Positions 10,520 to 52,620 of a stretch of 64,000 nucleotides of DNA are shown piece after piece. The first letter of the stretch is position 1. Every line of letters begins with the position of its first letter. Position numbers and translations under genes: made by a program. Source of the stretch: Eledone cirrhosa (lineage: Eukaryota); the NCBI GenBank assembly GCA_964016885.1, contig OZ024741.1:64046001-64110000 (forward strand), read 5' to 3'. The notes under the pieces were generated by a model. That model had not been told where the DNA came from. It saw only the letters and a program-made list of their open reading frames with translations, and did not search any database.

Positions 10520-11243
10520 CTTTTTTAAACCGGTCGAGGTCGTGACCACTTTTATGGCTTGATAGCAACACCCCACCAGGGTGCTCTTGCCGTAAGCCCG
10601 AAGCTTGTCCCCTTCAGCAGCAATGCAACACACCCGCTCTAATTTATGAAGCTGTGGTCACTTCCAACCGACCAAATCAACCACAGGAGGTCAAATCCTA
10701 TGTGGGTATGGCGAAGGGCCGATTTAAGGAACGCTTCCTGAACCGCCAGTCGACCTTTAGGTACCCGGACAGACGTTCATCCACGAAACTCGCGAGCCAC
10801 GTATGGTCCCTCAAGGACTCAAGTATAGACTACTCCATCCAATGGAAAGCCATCACTAAGTCCAAGCCATACGCAAGGGGAAATCCGTCGTGTGGACTAT
10901 GTATTGATCAACGAATAAATATTCTAAAGAGATTATGCAATAGTGATTGTCTAAACACGAGAAATGAATTCTTCACACGTTGTCCACACGTCTCGAAACA
11001 CCTCTTACACAGCAACATCCTAATTTTCTTATCAACTAGAAACTTTTCGGACTTTCGCAGTTATCTCCCTTAAACCTCTCGTACGCTTTTTAGTATTGCC
11101 TGTGTGAAGTGACGGTTTCTGGGCATGCGCGTTCGTACGGTTGTCCTTCCTGTTCCGTATAACTATGTCCATTACGGCTGAGGATCCGCTAAGGTGAAAC
11201 AATTGTTCTCGGTATGGTGAACTAACTGTTGTGTAACCACTTC
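10520..11243 (+). mobile_element. Naiad-type PLE 3' fragment: GIY-YIG endonuclease + 3' UTR with HHR, ending in (TA)n
   Basis: CSCRKPEACPLQQQC..LIYEA..SYVGMAKGRFKERF..TKLASHVW..CGLC..LNTRNE..RCPH. Confidence 0.85.
11169..11217 (+). ncRNA. Minimal type I hammerhead
   Basis: CTGAGGA t-cc gctaa gg-t GAAA C(AATT)G TT; imperfect stem I. Confidence 0.7.
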
Positions 11244-12070
11244 TATATATATATATATTTGCTACAACATTGACGGATGAGGGAACATTCAAAGAACAAA
11301 TAATAAATAGTGTGGATGGGAAGAGGTAGAATCCATTCTGAGAGAAAAAAAACAGGCATTTATACCAATTAATGAACCTCTGTCGGTTTCGGCAATGAGT
11401 CTTCCAATTGTTCAATCGAAGGAAAACATTTTTCATGAAATTAACGTGCAAATGGCTAAGAATTCTACTGACACGTGTAGCCTTAACGTAATTCACGGGA
11501 GGTTCAGCGAGAAACTGTGTGACAAGGCTAGCCTTTGAATTACAGGTACAGTCTCCATCTGCTGACATGGCATGGATCAACACGAGGCTATGGCAAATGG
11601 CACTTACTCAAGACGCCACGCAGTAGGGCCGAACCTAGGACCTAATTATTTCGAAGTGAACTTTTTCCCATTCGGCTACGCTACGTCCATATATGAAGCA
11701 AAATCATATTACAAGAAAACAAAATACAGTTTCAAACGTAATTTTCATATGTAATCCATTATTTTCTGACACGTCAAAAATATCTGGAGTTATATTGATT
11801 TGGAGATTATTAAATGACCTGGTTAGAGATTGCAATGTTTATTTCCATTATAGAAAAGAAATACACAAGAGTGCACATGGCATGAAGTTCCTGATGCATT
11901 CGCTCATGTCAGCTGGTGTGAGAGCGACAAGCTGATAGACTTCGGCATATTCTTAAAACTTCACAAGCTTATCCTCATTCTGCCACATACCGAATGACTC
12001 TGATTGTTATATGAGATGGGATTTGAACTCATAATGCACAGATGCCGCAAAGCATCTCGTTCGTCTATAG

Positions 12071-20019: not shown

Positions 20020-23000
20020 CAAACAACAACAACATCAACAACACCACAACTAACAACAACAACATCACCACCACCAACACCACCACCACTACCACCAACA
20101 TCACAACACCAACACCACTACTAACAACAACAACACCACTACCACCACCATCACAAAACACCACTACCACCAACATCACCACACCAACACCACTACTAAC
20201 AACAACAACACCCCCACCACCAACACCACTACCACAAACATCAACACACCAACACCACAACTAACAACAACAACACCCCCACCGCCATCACCAACACCAC
20301 TACCACCAACATCACCAAACTAACACCACAACTAACAACAACAACACCCCCACCACCATCACCAACACCACTACCACCAACATCACCAAACCAACACGAC
20401 AACTAACAACAACACACCCACCACTATCACCAACACCACTACCACCAACATCACCACACCAACACCACTACTAACAACAACAACACCCCCACCACCATCA
20501 CCAACACCACTACCACCAACATCACCACACCAACACCACAACTAACAACAACAACACCCCCACCACCATCACCAACACCACTACCACCAACATCACCACA
20601 CCAACACCACAACTAACAACAACAACACCCCCACCACCATCACCAACACCACTACCAACAACATCACCACACCACCACCAACAACAACAACACCACCACC
20701 ATCACCAACACCACTACCACCAACACCACCACTAACAATAACAACACCCCCACCACCATCACCAACACTACTACCACCAACATCACCACACCAACACCAC
20801 TACTAACAACAACAACACCCCCACCACCATCACCAACACCACTACCACCAACATCACCACACCAACACCACAACTAACAACAACAGCACCACCGCCATCA
20901 CCAACACCACTACCACCAACATCATCACCACCAACACCACAACTAACAACAACAACACCACCACCACCAACACCACTACGACAAAACATCACCACCACCA
21001 ACACCACCACTAACAACAACAACACCACCACCAACACCACTACGCCAAAACATCACCACCACCAACACCACCACTAACAACAACAACACCACCACCACCA
21101 TCACCAACACCACTATGACCAACATCATCACCACAAACACCACCACTAACAACAACACCACCACCATCACCAACACCACTACCACCAACATCACCACACC
21201 AACAACAACATTACCACTACCATCACCAACACCACTACCACCAACACCACCACTAACAACAACACCACCACCATCACCAACACCACCACCAACAACAACA
21301 CCACCACTAACAACAACAGCACCACCACCATCACCAACACCACTACCACCAACATCACCACCACCAACAACAACAACATCACCACTACCATCACCAGCAC
21401 CACTACCACCAAGAACACCACCACAAACACCGCCACCAACAACAACAACACCACCGCCACCATCAACAACAGCACCACCAACAAAATCACCAACACCACC
21501 ACCATCACCAACACCACTACCACCAAGATCACCACTAACAACAACAACAACAGCACCACCACCATCACCACCACCACTACCACCAATACCACCACTAACA
21601 ACAACAACATTACCACTACCATCACCAACACCACTACCACCAACACCACCACTAACAACAACACCACCACCATCACCAACACCACCACCAACAACAACAC
21701 CACCACTAACAACAACAGCACCACCACCATCACCAACACCACTACCACCAACATCACCACCACCAACAACAACAACATCACCACCACCATCACCACCACC
21801 ACTACCACCAATACCACCACTAACAACAACAACAGCACCACCACCATCACCACCACCACTACCACCAACACCACCACTAACAACAACAACAACAACACCA
21901 CCATCACCACCACCACTACCACCAATACCACCACTAACAACAACAACAACAGCACCACCACCATCACCACCACCACTACCACCAACACCATCATTAACAA
22001 CAACAACAACACCAATACCATCACCACCACCAATACCACCAACACCACCACTAACAACAACAACAACAGCACCACCACCATCACCACCACCACTACCACC
22101 AAGAACACCACCACCAACAACAACAACACCACCACCATCACCACCACCACTACCACCAACATCACCACTAACAACAACAACAACAGCACCACCACCATCA
22201 TCAGCACCACTACCACCAAGAACACCACCACCAACAACAACAACACCACCACCATCACCACCACCACTACCACCAACATCACCACTAACAACAACAACAA
22301 CACCACTACCATCACCAAGCCACCTCCACCAACAACACACCACCACTAACAACAACAACACCACCACCAACACCAACAACATCACCAACACCACCACCAA
22401 CACCACCACCAACAACATCACCACTAACAACATCACCACTAACAACAACAAGAACACCATCACTATCACCAACAACACCACCACCAACAACACACCACCA
22501 CTAACAACAACAACACCACCACCATCACCACCACCACTACCACCAACATCACCACTAACAACAACAACAACAGCACCACCACCATCACCAACACCACTAC
22601 CACCAACAACACCACCACTAACAACAACAACAACAGCACCACCACCATCACCAACACCACTACCACCAACATCACCACTAACAACAACAACAACAGCACC
22701 ACCATCACCAACACCACTACCACCAACAACACCACCACTAACAACAACAACAACAGCACCACCACCATCACCAACACCACTACCACCAACACCACCACTA
22801 ACAACAACAACAACAGCACCACCACCATCACCACTACCACTACCAACAACACCACCACTAACAACAACAACAGCACCACCACCATCACCACCACCACTAC
22901 CACAAACACCACCACTAACAACAACAACAACAGCACCACCACCATCACCACCACCACTACCACAAACACCACCACTAACAACAACAACAACAGCACCACC

Positions 23001-26000
23001 ACCATCACCAACACCACTACCACCAACACCACCACTAACAACAACAACAACAACAGCACCACCACCATCACCACCACCACTACCACAAACACCACCACTA
23101 ACAACAACAACAACAGCACCACCACCATCACCACCACCACTACCACAAACACCACCACTAACAACAACAACAACATCACCACCACCATCACCAACACCAC
23201 TACCACCAACATCACCACTAACAACAACAACATCAGCACCACCACCATCACCACCACCACTACCACAAACACCACCACTAACAACAACAACAACATCACC
23301 ACTACCATCACCAACACCACTACCACCAACACCACCACTAACAACAACAACAACAGCACCACCATCACCAACACCACTACCACCAACAACACCACCACTA
23401 ACAACAACAACAACAGCACCACTACCATCACCAACACCACTACCACCAACACCACCACTAACAACAACAACAACAGCACCACTACCATCACCACCACCAC
23501 TACCACCAAGAACACCACCAACAACAACAACAACAACACCACCACCATCACCACCACCAACAACACCACCACTAACAACAACACCACCACTAACAACAAC
23601 AACAACAGCACTACCACCATCACCAACACCACTACCACCAACATCACCACTAACAACAACAACAACAACAACACCACTACCATCACCACCACCACTACCA
23701 CCAACACCACCACTAACAACAACAACAACAGCACTACTACCATCACCAACACCACTACCACCAACAACACCACCACTAACAACAACACCAGCACCACCAC
23801 CACCATCACCACTACCAACAACACGACCACTAACAACAACAACAACAACAGCACCACCACCATCACCACCACCACCATCACCAGCACCACCATCACCAAC
23901 ACCACCACCAACAACAAAACCAACAACACCACCACCAACAACATCACCACTAACAACAACAAGAACACCATCACTATCACCAAGAACACCACCACCAACA
24001 ACACACCACCACTAACAACAACAACACCACCACCATCACCACCACCACTACCACCACCATCACCACCACCACCACCAACAACACACCACCACTAACAACA
24101 ACAACACCACCACCATCACCACTACCACTACCACCAACATCACCACTAACAACAACAACAACAGCACCACCACCATCACCACCACTACCACCAACAACAC
24201 TACCACTAACAACAACAACAACACCACCAACATCACCAACACCACCATCACCAACACCACCACTAACAACAACAACAACAGCACCACTACCATCACCAAC
24301 ACCACTCCCACCAACACCACCACCACTAACAACAACAACAACAACAACACCACCATCACCACCACCACTACCACCAACACCGCCACTAACAACAACAACA
24401 ACAGCACCACCACCATCACCACCACTACCACCAACAACACTACCACTAACAACAACAACACCACCACCATCACCAACACCACTACCACCAACACCACCAC
24501 TAACAACAACAACAACAGCACCACCACCATCACCACCACTACCACCAACAACACTACCACTAACAACAACAACAACACCACCACCATCACCAACACCACT
24601 ACCACCAACACCACCACTAACAACAACAACAACAGCACCACCACCATCACCACCACTACCACCAACAACACTACCACTAACAACAACAACAACACCACCA
24701 CCATCACCAACACCACTACCACCAACACCACCACTAACAACAACAACAACAGCACCACCACCATCACCACCACTACCACCAACAACACTACCACTAACAA
24801 CAACAACACCACCACCATCACCAACACCACTACCACCACCATCACCACCACCACCACCAACAACACACCACCACTAACAACAACAACACCACCACCATCA
24901 CCACTACCACTACCACCAACATCACCACTAACAACAACAACAACAGCACCACCACCATCACCACCACTACCACCAACAACACTACCACTAACAACAACAA
25001 CAACACCACCAACATCACCAACACCACCATCACCAACACCACCACTAACAACAACAACAACAGCACCACTACCATCACCAACACCACTCCCACCAACACC
25101 ACCACCACTAACAACAACAACAACAACAACACCACCATCACCACCACCACTACCACCAACACCGCCACTAACAACAACAACAACAGCACCACCACCATCA
25201 CCACCACTACCACCAACAACACTACCACTAACAACAACAACACCACCACCATCACCAACACCACTACCACCAACACCACCACTAACAACAACAACAACAG
25301 CACCACCACCATCACCACCACTACCACCAACAACACTACCACTAACAACAACAACAACACCACCACCATCACCAACACCACTACCACCAACACCACCACT
25401 AACAACAACAACAACAGCACCACCACCATCACCACCACTACCACCAACAACACTACCACTAACAACAACAACAACACCACCACCATCACCAACACCACTA
25501 CCACCAACACCACCACTAACAACAACAACAACAGCACCACCACCATCACCACCACTACCACCAACAACACTACCACTAACAACAACAACACCACCACCAT
25601 CACCAACACCACTACCACCAACACCACCACTAACAACAACAACAACAGCACCACCACCATCACCACCACTACCACCAACAACACCACCACTAACAACAAC
25701 AACAACAGCACCACCACCATCACCAACACCACTACCACCAACATCGCCACTAACAACAACAACAACAGCACCACCACCATCACCACCACCTCTACCACCA
25801 ACATCATCACCAACAACAACACCAGCACCACCACCATCACCACCACCACTACCACCAAGAACACCACCACTAACAACAACAACAACAGCACCACTACCAT
25901 CACCAACACCACTACCACCAACATCACCACCACCAACAACAACAACATCACCACTACCATCACCAACACCACTACCACCAACATCGCCACTAATAACAAC

Positions 26001-26660
26001 AACAACAGCACCACCACCACCATCACCACCACCACTACCAACAACACCACCACTAACAACAACACCAGCACCACCACCATCACCAACACCACTACCACCA
26101 ACATCACCACTAACAACAACAACAATAGCACCACCACCATCACCACCACCACTACCACCAAGAACACCACCAACAACAACAACAACAGCACCACCACCAT
26201 CACCACCACCACTACCAACAACACCACCACTAACAACAACACCAGCACCACCACCAACAACAACACCACTACCACTACTAACACCACCACTAACAACAAC
26301 AACACCACTACCAACACCATCACCAACACCACCACCAACAACATCACCACTAACAACAAACACCATCACTATCACCAAGCCACCTCCACCAACATCACTA
26401 CCACCTACACCACCACCAACACCATCACGAACACCACCACCAACAACATCACCACTAACAACAACAAGAACAGCATCACTATCACCAAGCCACCTCCACC
26501 AACATCACCACCACCAACACCATCACCAACACCACCACTAACAACAACAACAGCACCACCTCCAACACCATCACCACCACCGCCATCATCAACAACACTA
26601 CAACCAACATCACCATCGACAACAAGAACGCCTCCACCATCACCATCACCATCACCATAG
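20020..26660. repeat. 6.6-kb ACC/AAC-based minisatellite, ~57-63-bp unit, with higher-order duplications
   Basis: Unit like acaacaacaacaacagcaccaccaccatcaccaacaccactaccaccaacaccaccacta; markers recur at 782- and 399-bp periods. Confidence 0.92.
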
Positions 26661-27501: not shown

Positions 27502-29537
27502 TATAGTGATGTCGCTGCACAGAAATATAGAAGCCGCATGATGAGTTATTTGTAAGACTATATTGTATAGTACAACGTATCATTTACTAATTCAAAACGG
27601 TAGAGCAACCATGCAGAGATCTTCCAACGTTTGCTTAAAGTAAACATTGTTGCCGTTGCTTAACCCCAGATAAGCCCTGCTCGAACTGACCTGTGATGAA
27701 AAGCTTTCCTTCTGTGATCACCCTGTGTTTTGTATATCAATAACTATATTCTCCGGTATATATTTAATTCATAATTGCAAAGTGTGATTTGGCCGGTATT
27801 TTGCTGCTATAGTGATCATGCCGATAGGGAATTCATATGTTGAAAAAGCTGACATGTTGTAACATCCCTTTACACGGGGAAAATATTATTAGACAGACAC
27901 ACACCCACTTGACAGGTGTATCATATTTTCGTCTTTTGGTCTCACTTCTTTCTTATTCCTCTTTGCAGCATCGCTTAAAATTCCTATTCGAGAATTGTAG
28001 TATCGCCAGATACACTTCAGTCTTGTCCTTAACATTTATTAGTGATGGCGAATGCAGTCTTCGCCAAATTCTGCTTCGTTAGAAATTCAAAGGGAAATTA
28101 TGACACTTAGCTGACGTGTGGTATTCCGAAGCATTCTGAAGAAATTTTTACCTCAATAGCATCATCTATAAAGCTGGTTATGGTGTCGCGTTGCAATGAC
28201 CATTTGTAGGTTCTAGCTTCTGCAACTGGAATAGATTTCTGTCGACTTAGATAATGTGTGTTCCAGTCATTTAGTCGCTTTTGATCAGCGGAACAACCTG
28301 CTCGTGAAATTCAGGTATGAATGGCTGAGCGTTCTTCAAATACATGAAACATTAATGTAATTCCTAGAAAGATTCAGCGCGAGACAGCATGTGACAATCC
28401 TGCCCATTGAACTACAGATACAGTCAGTCAGACGGGCTTCCAAACAGTTTCTGTCTATCTAATTTTACTCTCAAGAAATGGGCCAAACCGGAGTTGTGTT
28501 ATGTGACACTTGTTAATATGTCTCGCAATTGAATCAAATCAGGAATTTAATGAATGTGGAGAGGATTTCTTAACCATTAGGCTATGTCGCGCTCACTGAC
28601 TTCAATAACATGATCGATTCTCTTCCTACACGCTACAGGAAATCCTGATAGATTGAGGTGATTTGTGAATTTTAGCGAGCAGAGTGTCCTCTTTTATCTC
28701 TCTGATCTCTTGAAAAGTGGCCTGAAAATCGAAAGTTATTGAAGCATAAAAAGAAAACGAGAACATTATTGAAATAAGGTTTAATCATTTACGGCTGGCT
28801 AAAGGGAGTGAGGGAGTCGTGGAGGCGCCATAGTAACAGGCAGCGTGTCTTGGGCATCATCTCCTCTCCAGGTCGATTTCTTCAAAAGATGAAGAGAGAC
28901 TGTGTGAGAGCGAGAGAAAGATACATAGAAGGATCTACCCCAGTACTGGAATGGTACGTTTTCTCGATCTCATAAAAATGAAAGGTTAAGTTGATGGGAT
29001 TAAGAGATACGGGAAACAATCCCGCAAAGCATTCTATCTGACGTTATAACGACTCTACCAATTCACCACCCGCTTAATTACTTATAAGATCGATATAAAT
29101 AAATAGCAGATTAACTTTATGGAAGGTAAACGAAAAGAGTTTCTAAATAACTTTAAAACATCGAATGTTATAAAATAGCTACATATGAAAGTACTTTTAT
29201 ATTCTCTCTAAAATTAAGCTAGCTATAATCCAAAGATTAAGTTGTAATTGCAAGAAATTTCAAAGATAGAACAATAGCTAGACTGGAGAGTGGAAGCAAG
29301 AAATAAGTGAATCTGGGTTTAAAAAGAGAGGCAAAAAGTATGAGAGATGTGATCGCAGTGAATGTGAGCTGTGGAGAATGAGGTGGGGAGGAAATGAAGT
29401 TCTGAAAATAGCCTGTAAAAGTAATATATGTATTAAAATATATCCAAATTGGAAGTTTTAAAACTTTACTTAGAGATTTTGGTTTTACTAATGTAAATCT
29501 CTCTCTCTCTCTCTCTCTCTGTATGTATATATATATA

Positions 29538-30480
29538 TATAAAGGTTAACATATACATAAAGTTATAGATATATATACGTTGCAACTGGTCACTTTTAAG
29601 CTCTATGAAGAATTAATAAATTAAAAAATCAGAGCATTATATCATAAATCATGTCTTTAGAATCATCAGATAATAAAATATATACTATTTCTTCTTCTAA
29701 TTAGCATAATTAACCATATAAAAAATAATAGGAGCATTTATTCTTATAGCTTGTTATGATTGATTTTTTATATGGTTAATTATGCTAATTAGAAGAAGAA
29801 ATAGTATATATTTTATTATCTGATGATTCTAAAGACATGATTTATGATATAATGCTCTGATTTTTTAATTTATTAAATCTTCATAGAGCTTAAAAGTGAC
29901 CAGTTGCAACGTATATATATCTATAACTTTATGTATATGTTAACCTTTATATTTAATAATCTCCCAATAGGTTGAGATTAAATTTGGCGATATTTGGCTG
30001 CGCTTTCTAGTAGCAAGCCTACCCGCCGTAAGCAACCAATCACATTCTTTCTCTCTGGCTTGAACACAGCCACATAGCGATTTTTAGCCATTTTTTAATC
30101 TAATTTTGGCGGGATCGGATTGAAAAACTAGATGTCTGATTTTGAGTTTGTCTCCCGATGAATCCTAACTCAGGACATTCCTATTATTTGAATGTCCAAA
30201 ATAAGGAAGAAACCATGGTAGAGATATAATTACGGTATGTGCGCATTTCTTCTAAGTTTAATTTTACAACTAATTGTGTATGGTTGATGGTATATTTAGT
30301 CAGTTTCTACATGCTGTCGAAATGTTGGATAAATACTCGACTGAGGCCGCCGCGAAGAGGCTACGTTCGATTATTTGTCGGAGATTTCCCCATAAGAGCA
30401 TTTATTCTTATAGCTTGTTCTGATTGATTTTTTATATGGTTAATTATGCTAATTAGAAGAAGAAATAGTATATATTTTAT
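29538..30480 (+). mobile_element. Non-coding HHR element: ~189-bp fold-back (29538-29726 / 29763-29951) and an ~85-bp terminal direct repeat (29728 / 30392, period 664 bp), in (TA)n
   Basis: Repeats read directly; no credible ORF. Confidence 0.85.
30149..30226 (+). ncRNA. Type I hammerhead with CCGATGA (U4C) core
   Basis: tgtctc/gagata stem I; tcct/agga + ggacattc/gaatgtcc stem II; GAAA C(CATG)G TA. Confidence 0.75.
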
Positions 30481-30532
30481 ATATATATATATAGAGAGAG
30501 AGAGATTTACATTAGTATCATTATAAAAAAGA

Positions 30533-30862
30533 TACCAAGTTTCCGTCGTCGAGAACGCACCCCAATTTTGACAACCCAAAATCTGAAAAACTATAATAAA
30601 CGTAAAAATAAGGTCCCGGCATTTCGGCTCTTGTTACCTAATGTTTTACGATATTTTGTTTATTAACTACTTTCACTAAGTATAATTTATACACTTGATT
30701 AAGAGGTCATTACAGTTCAGATTGCCGTCTAGCATAGATAATTTTCCTCTGTGGTTAGGATATGCCTATGAAAAACGCAACCTTCGGTCTCCAGGACGCA
30801 TGGTAGATTTTCGAGACATATTTTAGGAAAAAATAGCCTCTTCGACGCCAGGAAATACGGTA
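30533..30862. mobile_element. Possible old Tc1/mariner-type MITE
   Basis: Imperfect TIR taccaagtttccgtcgtcga vs reverse complement taccgtatttcctggcgtcga. Confidence 0.3.
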
Positions 30863-48434: not shown

Positions 48435-49266
48435 CAGTATTTTCCGTTGTGTTGTAATATAAATATTACACACAGTAGATTATCAGCTCACGTAGAGTTT
48501 GCTCGACGGTTCCAGTTGTAGTTCCAAAAGTAATCCGGAGAAAAATAGAAAGATTTGAATGGATACAGTTTAGTTGAAAGGAATTTATTGACACGTGTTT
48601 CTATAACAGTTACATAACCTAAAACAGCTGCTATCTACAAACTTTTAGTTATGCAGACATTCAATATTTCAATGTTATTATTTACTGTCATTTCATCAGA
48701 ATAATATTACTGAGGACCTGTTTAGTTTTTATAGAGAATATTAGGAGGGAGGGGTGAAGTTGTTAGAAGAATAGTTGAAGGAGTGGTTTTTCGATAGCAG
48801 TGAGAATTCTTGGTGGCAGTGAGTAATTAGATTCCCATCTGTTGTTTTGACATTTTTTATAGAATATATTATTGGTTATTTTTCTAAATCTATAGAAGGA
48901 TTAGAGATAGTAAAGATATGCGTGGTTGGTTTTGTGTTTGCACTTAATTAACATTCAGACTTAAATTTTTCTTTCAAGTGTACGTATCCTTTCACCCACG
49001 CATTCACAAACAAATATATTTGCACACCTCTACAAAATACATATACTCACAATTCACATATTCATACTTACATATATATACACATGCATACACATATATA
49101 TACACACATGTATTCATGTACATACATACGCGCTCATGTGTATACATTTTCATACTCAACTTATCTTTATATACACACGTATAGACACACACATATATAC
49201 ATACATACTCTAGTCCATGTGTACACACATACACATACATACACATCCATATACACATATATACAT

Positions 49267-49347
<81 letters not shown>

Positions 49348-49917
49348 CACTTTAATACATGAATACACTTACATCTAACTATACACATCAAACATATATA
49401 TATATATTTACTTATTTATATACATTTTCACATATATATACATACTTATGGACGTTTTTAGACACATTCATTATCGCATATTTGTACCTATTCTCATCAG
49501 CATATCTTTCCATTATTAGTGTGGTAATTTAAGGTTATTAATATATGTTGAGAAGAGATTGTTTTTATATTTTTCTAACTAGATTAAGGTTTATATAGTT
49601 GGGGGATGTCCCTCTTTTATGTAATATTCGGCTTGTAGTGGGAAAAAAAGGGTTTTAGTTCTGTGACGGCAGAATAATGTTCGTTCAATTCTGTTATTCA
49701 GCAGTTTCTTCTTGTGTGTGATTATGTAATAAATCTCAAGATTACACAATTTGCAGAAATTTTGGCTCCTGGAAAAGCTTTGGGTTTTAGCTAATTTTTC
49801 CCATTTTAGGGTAAACTTTTGATCGCTATCCCTGAGCGTCCAAGCTTTTTCTGCTAAAGTTGTTACATTTCTTTGGCTCTGGTGTTTTATTGAGTAAGAA
49901 TGCCTATACAATCGAGA

Positions 49918-51339
49918 AATTTGAGAACAGTTATTGGGTACGTAAAGATAGACCCTCTAACTTTGACATAACAATGGGCTCTAACGATTCGGCGGAAATA
50001 ACTGATATTGTGGGGTTATTTATCGCCTTTAGACTCCAGGAAAAATTCAGCAATCTCCACGGCGGAATATACCGCGACGATGTTCTCTTCCTAGCTAAAA
50101 ACCTTAATAACCAAAAACTAGAAAAACTACGCAAAGATATAAGAAAACTACTACTCGAAATAGGACTAACTATAACATATGAATACAACCTTAAAGTAGT
50201 TAACTTCCTGGATGTCACACTCAATTTAAACTCTGGTTTGATTAAACCGTTTCATAAATTGAATGAAAATCTCAAATACGTAAATGTTGGGTCTAACCAC
50301 CCCATCTCTATAATTAAATCTATCCCTAAAAATATTTCCCTTAGAATCTCGGGTCTATCTTCTAACATACAAGTATTTAAGGAACACGCCGAGTACTACG
50401 ATAACGCCCTTAGTAAAGCAGGCTACCTCAACAAAATAGAGTACATAGATGGGAACAATCAAAACACCCAAAATAAATCCCACATAGGTAGATATAATAA
50501 CACAACACCAAACCACACTTACTACCATAGTATGCACACCAGTAAACCAACAAACAAAACTAATAGAAAGCGATGCAAAGAGTACTTATGGTATAACCCC
50601 GAATACAATAGTTCCATTAGTACAAATTTACCAGTACTCTTCTTTAAAATAATTAAAAGACATTTTCCCACATCACACAAATACCACAAAATCCTAAACC
50701 CTACCACTATAAGACTGTCATACTCTACAGCGTTAAACCTTGAACAACACATAAAAATGATCAATACTAGAAGGTTAAACGAAAACACTAAGAACTTAAG
50801 TACAAAGAACACAAAAAAAAACAGTAAACAATACACTACAGAACATAAATAAACCACACCTAAGTTCGTCCGCAATACTACTCCAGAGAAAACCCAACGT
50901 ACACAACTGTAACTGCACCTATCCTGACAACTGCCCCCTCGGCAATAACTGCCTGGAAAAAAATATTATTTATAAGTGTACCATTAAATCCGGAGGCAAC
51001 GAGTGGTATTACGTGGGATCAACGGCAACATCGTTTAAATCTCGATTATATAGGCATTCTTACTCAATAAAACACCAGAGCCAAAGAAATGTAACAACTT
51101 TAGCAGAAAAAGCTTGGACGCTCAGGGATAGCGATCAAAAGTTTACCCTAAAATGGGAAAAATTAGCTAAAACCAAAAGCTTTTCCAGGAGCCAAAATTT
51201 CTGCAAATTGTGTAATCTTGAGATTTATTACATAATCACACACAAGAAGAAACTGCTGAATAACAGAATTGAACGAACATTATTCTGCCGTCACAGAACT
51301 AAAACCCTTTTTTCCCACTACAAGCCGAATATTACATAA
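49918..51339 (+). pseudogene. Truncated PLE RT-thumb + GIY-YIG ORF (one break near 50850)
   Basis: ORF track 49860-50852 and 51013-51339. Confidence 0.9.
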
Positions 51340-51609
51340 AAGAGGGACATCCCCCCAACTATATAAACCTTAATCTAGTTAGAAAAATATAAAAACAATC
51401 TCTTCTCAACATATATTAATAACCTTAAATTACCACACTAATAATGGAAAGATATGCTGATGAGAATAGGTACAAATATGCGATAATGAATGTGTCTAAA
51501 AACGTCCATAAGTATGTATATATATGTGAAAATGTATATAAATAAGTAAATATATATATATATGTTTGATGTGTATAGTTAGATGTAAGTGTATTCATGT
51601 ATTAAAGTG

Positions 51610-51712
<103 letters not shown>

Positions 51713-52274
51713 ATGTATATATGTGTATATGGATGTGTATGTATGTGTATGTGTGTACACATGGACTAGAGTATGTATGTATATATGTGTGTGTCTATAC
51801 GTGTGTATATAAAGATAAGTTGAGTATGAAAATGTATACACATGAGCGCGTATGTATGTACATGAATACATGTGTGTATATATATGTGTATGCATGTGTA
51901 TATATATGTAAGTATGAATATGTGAATTGTGAGTATATGTATTTTGTAGAGGTGTGCAAATATATTTGTTTGTGAATGCGTGGGTGAAAGGATACGTACA
52001 CTTGAAAGAAAAATTTAAGTCTGAATGTTAATTAAGTGCAAACACAAAACCAACCACGCATATCTTTACTATCTCTAATCCTTCTATAGATTTAGAAAAA
52101 TAACCAATAATATATTCTATAAAAAATGTCAAAACAACAGATGGGAATCTAATTACTCACTGCCACCAAGAATTCTCACTGCTATCGAAAAACCACTCCT
52201 TCAACTATTCTTCTAACAACTTCACCCCTCCCTCCTAATATTCTCTATAAAAACTAAATAGGCCCTCAGTAATA

Positions 52275-52394
52275 TTATTCTGATGAAATGACAGTAAATA
52301 ATAACATTGAAATATTGAATGTCTGCATAACTAAAAGTTTGTAGATAGCAGCTGTTTTAGGTTATGTAACTGTTATAGAAACACGTGTCAATAA
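52275..52394 (+). ncRNA. Type I hammerhead with ~90-nt stem II insertion (mirror at 48585-48704 on -)
   Basis: ttatt CTGATGA a atgacagt..actgttat a GAAA C(ACGT)G TC aataa. Confidence 0.8.
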
Positions 52395-52620
52395 ATTCCT
52401 TTCAACTAAACTGTATCCATTCAAATCTTTCTATATTTATATATATATATATATGCATATATGCATATATGTGTATATATATATATGGGGGGGTGCGTGT
52501 GTGTGTGTGTGTGCATATATGAATACATATGTGCATTATGTGCAAGCTTCTCAATCCATTGTTTTGTATTCAAAAAGCATATAAACTTTTAGCTTAATCT
52601 TGTTTTAGTGCCGAGTGAAT

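Follow-up and report, generated by a model that had tools for sequence, protein, structure and literature searches.

The repeat and the adjoining fold-back in the window (the whole stretch of 64,000 nucleotides analysed from Eledone cirrhosa contig OZ024741.1) are best explained as one insertion of a non-coding hammerhead family with two fixed, (TA)n-joined 3' ends, which would be mobilised in trans by a Penelope-like element (PLE) priming both strands on one, often circular, RNA. We give this reading as a whole a probability of about two in three. Its parts are not equally secure: that the family is a PLE-mobilised retrozyme is very probable, priming of two strands on one template is likely, and circles are moderately favoured by the sequence data as the main template for read-through. 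The traits of a non-autonomous PLE are present (fixed 3' ends, an optional tail, variable 5' truncation, a head-to-head inverted copy and a (TA)n target). Membership in the class of retrozymes and non-autonomous PLEs, as judged from the genomic copies, is well supported, and the family behaves like a PLE passenger.

Architecture of the window insertion

Unit positions (U1–664) are counted from window position 29728. The insertion consists, in order, of (TA)n, an inverted segment running from U228 to U36, a forward segment U1–664, a second copy of U1–89 and (TA)n (Table 1). The original prediction described a unit that begins and ends with the same ~85 bp, and such a direct repeat is found: 29728–29816 and 30392–30480 (89 nt) are identical at 87 of 89 positions and are spaced by 664 nt. 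It also described a hammerhead outside the terminal repeat, which folds at 30150–30225, and a fold-back upstream of it, in which 29534–29726 is the reverse complement of 29763–29955 with 191 of 193 positions matching. The unit had been placed too far to the left, at 29538; its true start is 29728, and the segment 29534–29726 is the inverted arm.

Table 1. Coordinates of features in the window (positions of the 64,000-nt stretch)
Feature	Position	Strand	Basis
Target DNA on the left: 14 bases of unique sequence, then (TC)n, then (TA)n joined to the left arm	29486..29533	+	
Left inverted arm, U36–228; outer end is the long (L) 3' end of the family	29534..29726	-	
Full 664-nt unit U1–664, non-coding, first part of the right arm	29728..30391	+	
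Promoter-like stretch 5' of the ribozyme: CCAAT at 30036, TTTGGCG at 29983 and 30105	29956..30130	+	
Type I hammerhead (predicted), outside the 89-nt repeat	30150..30225	+	motif conservation, compensatory changes
Predicted long rod of the sense RNA, cut site to S start (U507 pairs with U88)	30234..30479	+	prediction only
Second pass over U1–89; atypical 3' end, 35 nt before the usual S end at U124	30392..30480	+	
(TA)n and (GA)n with a locus-specific inverted copy of the left target DNA	30479..30517	-	
Coding Hydra-type PLE, young two-armed insertion in (TA)n	48436..52438		

The right end of this copy is peculiar. Its position at U89 is unique among 173 arms, and the copy is one of seven odd-ended two-armed insertions (its left arm ends at L, its right arm at U89). 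The direct repeat taken for 'terminal redundancy' is thus incidental and not a feature of the family. An inverted duplication of target DNA flanks the insertion (29486–29524 and 30479–30517), and a 20-mer taken from it occurs genome-wide only at these two window sites. A crude comparison of flanks, hampered by microsatellites, shows no target duplication, direct or inverted, at any of 62 further loci. The U89 end and the inverted target duplication are probably the product of a single local repair event, in which the left flank would have been copied into the right junction; the insertion itself would comprise one arm of 193 nt started at L and another of about 1.1 units.

The 664-nt unit contains no useful ORF, and the ORF with reverse transcriptase (RT) and GIY-YIG that marks an autonomous PLE is absent from it. 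The promoter-like stretch with its CCAAT and TTTGGCG motifs lies within blocks common to a 75%-identical sister family and, from its sequence, may act as a promoter. A splice-donor-like GTATGT is found shortly 3' of the ribozyme and an acceptor-like TTTATTCTTATAG further on (window positions 30236 and 30412); the donor-like motif is not kept in the sister family (family B). Introns at the 5' end can persist in PLEs. Just to the right of the insertion (30535–30850) begins an unrelated dispersed repeat with 302 candidates that are 81–89% identical, and a 6.6-kb CAC/AAC trinucleotide-type array with higher-order periods of 57–60 nt occupies window positions 20022–26651.

A dispersed family with sister families

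The window repeat and its fold-back are not a chance arrangement, since the unit belongs to a genome-wide dispersed family. A search of the 3.0-Gb genome with the whole unit gave 3,807 first-look candidates, and searches with short parts gave 1,198–2,164; the loci scored are the best 40 of each search's candidates and so are top-scoring and non-random. The family takes the form of partial copies, insertions of one to three units and long arrays (about nine units in L054, about seven in L056 and more than 50 kb on C4). The C4 array (C4:175,574,000–175,638,600; L318 and L319) displays a higher-order duplication and ends normally at S after a stutter at U89. In several loci (L025, L036, L014, L074, L037 and L059), different insertions have flank sequence in common beyond the (TA)n, which suggests that such copies are nested within other repeat families, at the (TA)n ends of these.

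One sister family, with a unit of 641 nt, is 75% identical over its full length, counts 2,121 candidates and carries a canonical G-C base pair at the base of stem II. Its loci include L056 (956–1564) and L117–L146, and one copy adjoins the C18 array. A hammerhead pattern search gave 722 further related matches, and all 30 loci examined among these are collinear non-coding units 69–94% identical. The family might already be listed in the Repbase-type supplementary files of the papers cited below.

Hammerhead ribozyme and RNA folding

The hammerhead call is based on motif conservation and on compensatory changes between families, not on Rfam, which returned nothing at the gathering score in the window and, at E<=10, only AT-rich miRNA look-alikes and no hammerhead. 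Stem I is formed by 30150–54 and 30221–25 and is followed by the core at 30155–61, stem II is long, and stem III has 2 bp and a palindromic CAUG loop. The predicted cut falls after 30220 (U493). Between the 664-nt family (A) and its 641-nt sister (B), stems I and II carry compensatory changes (U-A to G-C at the base of stem II, G-C to A-U and C-G to U-A in its inner part, and U-A to A-U in stem I), and the GAAAC-CAUG-GUA motifs are invariant. The core is intact in 87 of 101 family hammerheads. In the window copy it reads CCGAUGA (mutation U4C at 30156), and a copy with a single mutated ribozyme would be a dead end. Folded as a circle, the sense strand is predicted to be unusually stable (z=-4.5, 40 shuffles), the antisense strand folds in no comparable way, and the ribozyme region folded freely by itself is unremarkable (z=-0.87).

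Two fixed 3' ends and strict pairing of arms

The census of ends covers 173 arms in 119 distinct insertions, which again are top-scoring matches and non-random. Before counting, rows were dropped for L017 (same as L007), L187 and L221 (same as L186), repeat fetches, and L317–L319, in which the array ends lie outside the sequence taken. Almost all arms (166 of 173) end at one of two sites: 104 at the short (S) site, U120–126 (~124), and 62 at the L site, U209–232 (mostly 228). Seven end elsewhere. The two sites are spaced by 104 nt, both terminate in TATA followed by (TA)n, and both are kept in the sister families that are 69–94% identical. The 5' ends are variable and spread across the unit.

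One arm is found in 65 insertions (54 S, 11 L), a few of which hide a tiny second arm. The other 54 have two arms, which are arranged head-to-head in every case. S is paired with L in 47 of the 54, S with S and L with L in none, and seven have one odd end; 47 mixed pairs out of 47 have a probability of 7e-15 at even odds.

These ends bear on how a circular template is to be recognised. The original prediction expected start points to be variably permuted among copies; in fact the 3' ends, where RT starts, are fixed at two sites, and only the 5' ends vary. A permutation check for a circle would therefore have misled. The prediction had also counted fixed ends, combined with a position in the 3' UTR of a coding PLE, as evidence against itself. 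Fixed ends are indeed present, on the 3' side only, and no family copy among 293 loci is the 3' UTR of a coding PLE.

Templates continuous across the ribozyme site

More than one round of RT on a circular or tandem RNA had been proposed for the window copy. The family supports the view that RT covered more than one unit and that the template was continuous across the unit junction: 51 of 119 arms are longer than one unit, and the ribozyme site is crossed by 87 of 119, in 17 cases twice (this sample was partly selected for full units). The circular form of the template is likely from these data rather than proven.

The long arrays L054 and L056 were excluded from the counts of stops and of concordance. 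RT read through the ribozyme site in 81 of 96 passes and stopped at U487–506 in the other 15, where 6.1 stops are expected (p=0.0016, locus selection allowed for). The excess recurs in the 39 loci added after the signal was first seen (9 stops in 48 passes, 2.6 expected, p=0.0017), and in one insertion (L315) both arms end at the ribozyme site. An ATATA at U497–501 provides microhomology to (TA)n and confounds this excess; another TA-rich spot, U36–55, displays a similar one (5 of 22, 1.2 expected), and 2 of the 15 stop junctions retain bases upstream of the cut. Judged from the copies, most templates are continuous across the ribozyme site and some were probably cut.

Units and arms within an insertion carry a common haplotype. 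At 12 diagnostic sites, discordance is 8 of 251 within an arm and 13 of 207 between arms (3–6%), as compared with 30,686 of 60,757 (50%) between loci. Furthermore, 22 locus-private variants in 15 loci are present in all overlapping segments, 13 of them spanning both arms; 257 private variants are confined to some segments only. Loci L032 and L080 are partly mosaic. Among the template-borne shared variants, an excess of A-to-I editing is not significant (13 A>G, 9 T>C; Fisher p=0.16). The dispersed insertions of two to three units are star-like, with no minor allele common to two units in any of eight, and in the long arrays L054 and L056 the shared variants are nested, a sign of later DNA duplication or of assembly polishing.

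The haplotype data would fit a monomeric circle and would fit transcripts of a homogeneous array equally well, which brings in the most serious alternative. Here, the PLE machinery and the two-site priming would be the same, homogeneous arrays would be transcribed into linear multimers that serve uncut as template, DNA-level duplication would renew the tandems, and a circle would be unneeded. Long arrays with later DNA-level duplication do exist, stem III is weak, and the junctions of genomic tandems look identical to those of circles. Moreover, ribozyme cleavage is dispensable and unprocessed RNA is the main substrate in the sole PLE tested in vitro, according to the accessible text of PMC11167929 (Frangieh et al. 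2024). Against this, the old arrays are heterogeneous (mean pairwise difference of 3.3–4.9%), yet dispersed insertions are star-like, and the private variants that extend across units and arms in 15 loci would require many separate single-unit bottlenecks. Nor are 5' ends in excess where transcription was guessed to begin (1 at U400–426, with 2.7 expected). We consider this alternative unlikely, at perhaps a quarter of the weight.

A template made of cut linear monomers only, on which RT jumps from the 5' end to the 3' end and leaves seamless tandems, is improbable. It would account for the excess of stops at the cut site and for the stuttered junction of L266, but read-through predominates, the junction is intact among the copies listed (point changes aside), and a regular haplotype switch at U494 is absent.

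Origin of the inverted arm

Slightly less probable still is an inverted arm made by self-priming, or snap-back, of one cDNA, a type of model found in the part of PMC3846280 available here. In the window, the inverted arm does mirror the first part of the forward arm across a 36-nt loop, and short palindromes are present at some junctions. Snap-back predicts related 5' ends, however, and in a hand count of 35 two-armed loci (L041, with an artefact arm, and L043, with a mis-called arm, excluded) these are unrelated in 31; they are no more than 40 nt apart in four, and about four are expected by chance. The rarity of nearby 5' ends speaks against derivation of the inverted arm from the forward arm by snap-back. 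In addition, the 3' end of the inverted arm is the second of the two fixed sites, and the strict S+L pairing disfavours self-priming. Rather than a hairpin, the fold-back is most plausibly a second arm with its own priming event.

Coding PLEs and the candidate mobiliser

Coding PLEs are abundant in the genome (35,751 candidates). They comprise an RT, a linker with the CxCX5C motif and a GIY-YIG-type end, and the Hydra CxCX5C linker motif is present in 26 of 42 coding loci; Pfam did not recognise the PLE proteins. A Neptune label for these elements was rejected because this linker points to Hydra, as in the accessible part of PMC8557442. The mobilising RT/endonuclease is probably of the Hydra clade. 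None of the 42 coding loci (one Hydra-type family of the 35,751 candidates) proved to be an autonomous partner with matching ends, and searches by protein, in long-ORF loci and with the hammerhead pattern (722 matches, 30 loci examined) gave none either.

The coding PLE in the window (Table 1) has no sequence in common with the 664-nt unit, and its two-armed geometry is the same as that given by the 104-nt S–L spacing in the 664-nt family. Its arms of 805 nt are reported to be 100% complementary, its tail of about 107 nt is present on the left arm only, and hammerhead-like motifs with a very long stem II are found at 52280 (+) and 48699 (-). A further PLE is represented at window positions 10567–11260 by its 3' end, which includes a compact hammerhead (11178) and terminates in (TA)n.

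A family made up of 5'-truncated coding-PLE ends (pLTRs), or of ordinary satellite repeats, is very improbable: such hammerheads do occur in pLTRs (PMC4209133, as far as its text was available) and long arrays act like satellites, but the sequence 5' of the ribozyme always runs into the previous unit, the PLE coding fragments near the 293 loci are downstream, inverted or separate, and the copies are dispersed with fixed ends like those of target-primed reverse transcription (TPRT). The unit is nonetheless likely to be derived from a lost pLTR.

A possible course of insertion

Mobilisation in trans by a PLE that primes both strands could proceed as follows. A copy with two ribozymes would be transcribed and cut into 664-nt monomers, part of which would be ligated to circles. 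A PLE protein, probably a dimer, would nick both strands of a (TA)n target, and one RT would begin at S and the other at L via short TATA microhomology. On a circle or uncut RNA the RTs would continue past the ribozyme site, on cut RNA they would stop there, and the two cDNAs would be joined head-to-head. More tentatively, and at somewhat less than even odds, an asymmetric PLE dimer may give each (TA)n strand its own fixed start, with both RTs circling the same 664-nt RNA and a minority of cut templates leaving run-off ends.

If the asymmetric dimer is correct, more than 1,000 genomic copies of the family would record rolling-circle twin-primed retrotransposition and germ-line cutting by a hammerhead, and a single mechanism would explain PLE tails, tandems and inversions. 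These three features have long been a mechanistic puzzle, hence the usefulness of the family; the window insertion, for its part, is a defunct copy of an already known type of element.

Comparison with known systems

The 664-nt family differs from plant-type LTR retrozymes, in which the hammerhead lies inside fixed terminal repeats and the target duplication is 4 bp: its overlap is variable in length and usually lacks the ribozyme, and no direct target duplication is discernible. L1 twin priming also yields a head-to-head inversion from two primers on a single RNA, the second site being variable and the two parts non-overlapping; in the 664-nt family neither site varies, and each of the two arms can be longer than a unit.

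Metazoan non-LTR retrozymes are closer. They too are multi-copy, non-coding, low-GC tandem units without LTR or ORF that carry a type I hammerhead per unit, range from monomers to long arrays, are predicted to have self-paired RNA and are proposed to originate from PLEs. The length of 664 nt is within the 51–972 bp given, together with a PLE origin, in the part available of 10.64898/2026.07.22.740005 (Li, Clavereau and Pollet 2026), where one of nine dimers was cleaved in vitro. Linear and circular monomers are described for coral, mussel and axolotl retrozymes in PMC7229834 (Cervera and de la Pena 2020). Circles shown experimentally are 170–400 nt long in the text available; a circle of the 664-nt unit would be longer. 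Fixed dual ends and two-armed insertions are features of the 664-nt family that were not found described for retrozymes in the accessible part of PMC7229834. The circle inference itself has been in print since 2014, when PMC4209133, in its available part, proposed hammerhead cleavage, ligation and more-than-unit RT of the circle for PLEs. No paper stating the strict S+L pairing, or testing the circle from genomic copies, was found in a literature search with most subscription journals outside its reach.

The layout of the insertions is that of endonuclease-bearing (EN+) PLEs, especially of the Hydra clade, which likewise have partial tandems, an inverted 5'-truncated head-to-head copy, a tail at one end, a (TA)n target and a hammerhead with a palindromic loop 3. 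Tandem and inverted copies with a one-end tail are described in PMC8557442 (Craig et al. 2021) and PMC3846280 (Arkhipova et al. 2013), and the former also reports Hydra elements with the CxCX5C linker, hammerheads and (TA)n insertion. The 664-nt family differs from these elements in that it has no ORF and its tail is 104 nt rather than 30–40 nt long. In the accessible text of these papers the tail is optional or 'often at one end', whereas all 47 classifiable pairs of the 664-nt family have one arm with the tail and one without.

A mechanistic parallel is Poseidon of Anolis carolinensis, for which PMC11167929, in the part available, ties the tail to two internal RT starts in vitro, finds both strands cut and extended, and predicts a dimer. 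The spacing of the two starts by the tail and the AT-rich target are also alike. The Poseidon start is not homologous to the target, and its strands are not assigned to sites in that text; the 664-nt family has TATA microhomology at both ends and one site per side. From its strict S+L pairing, the private variants that segments of an insertion have in common and the partial block at the ribozyme site follow sharp predictions for an in vitro assay of the kind used for Poseidon.
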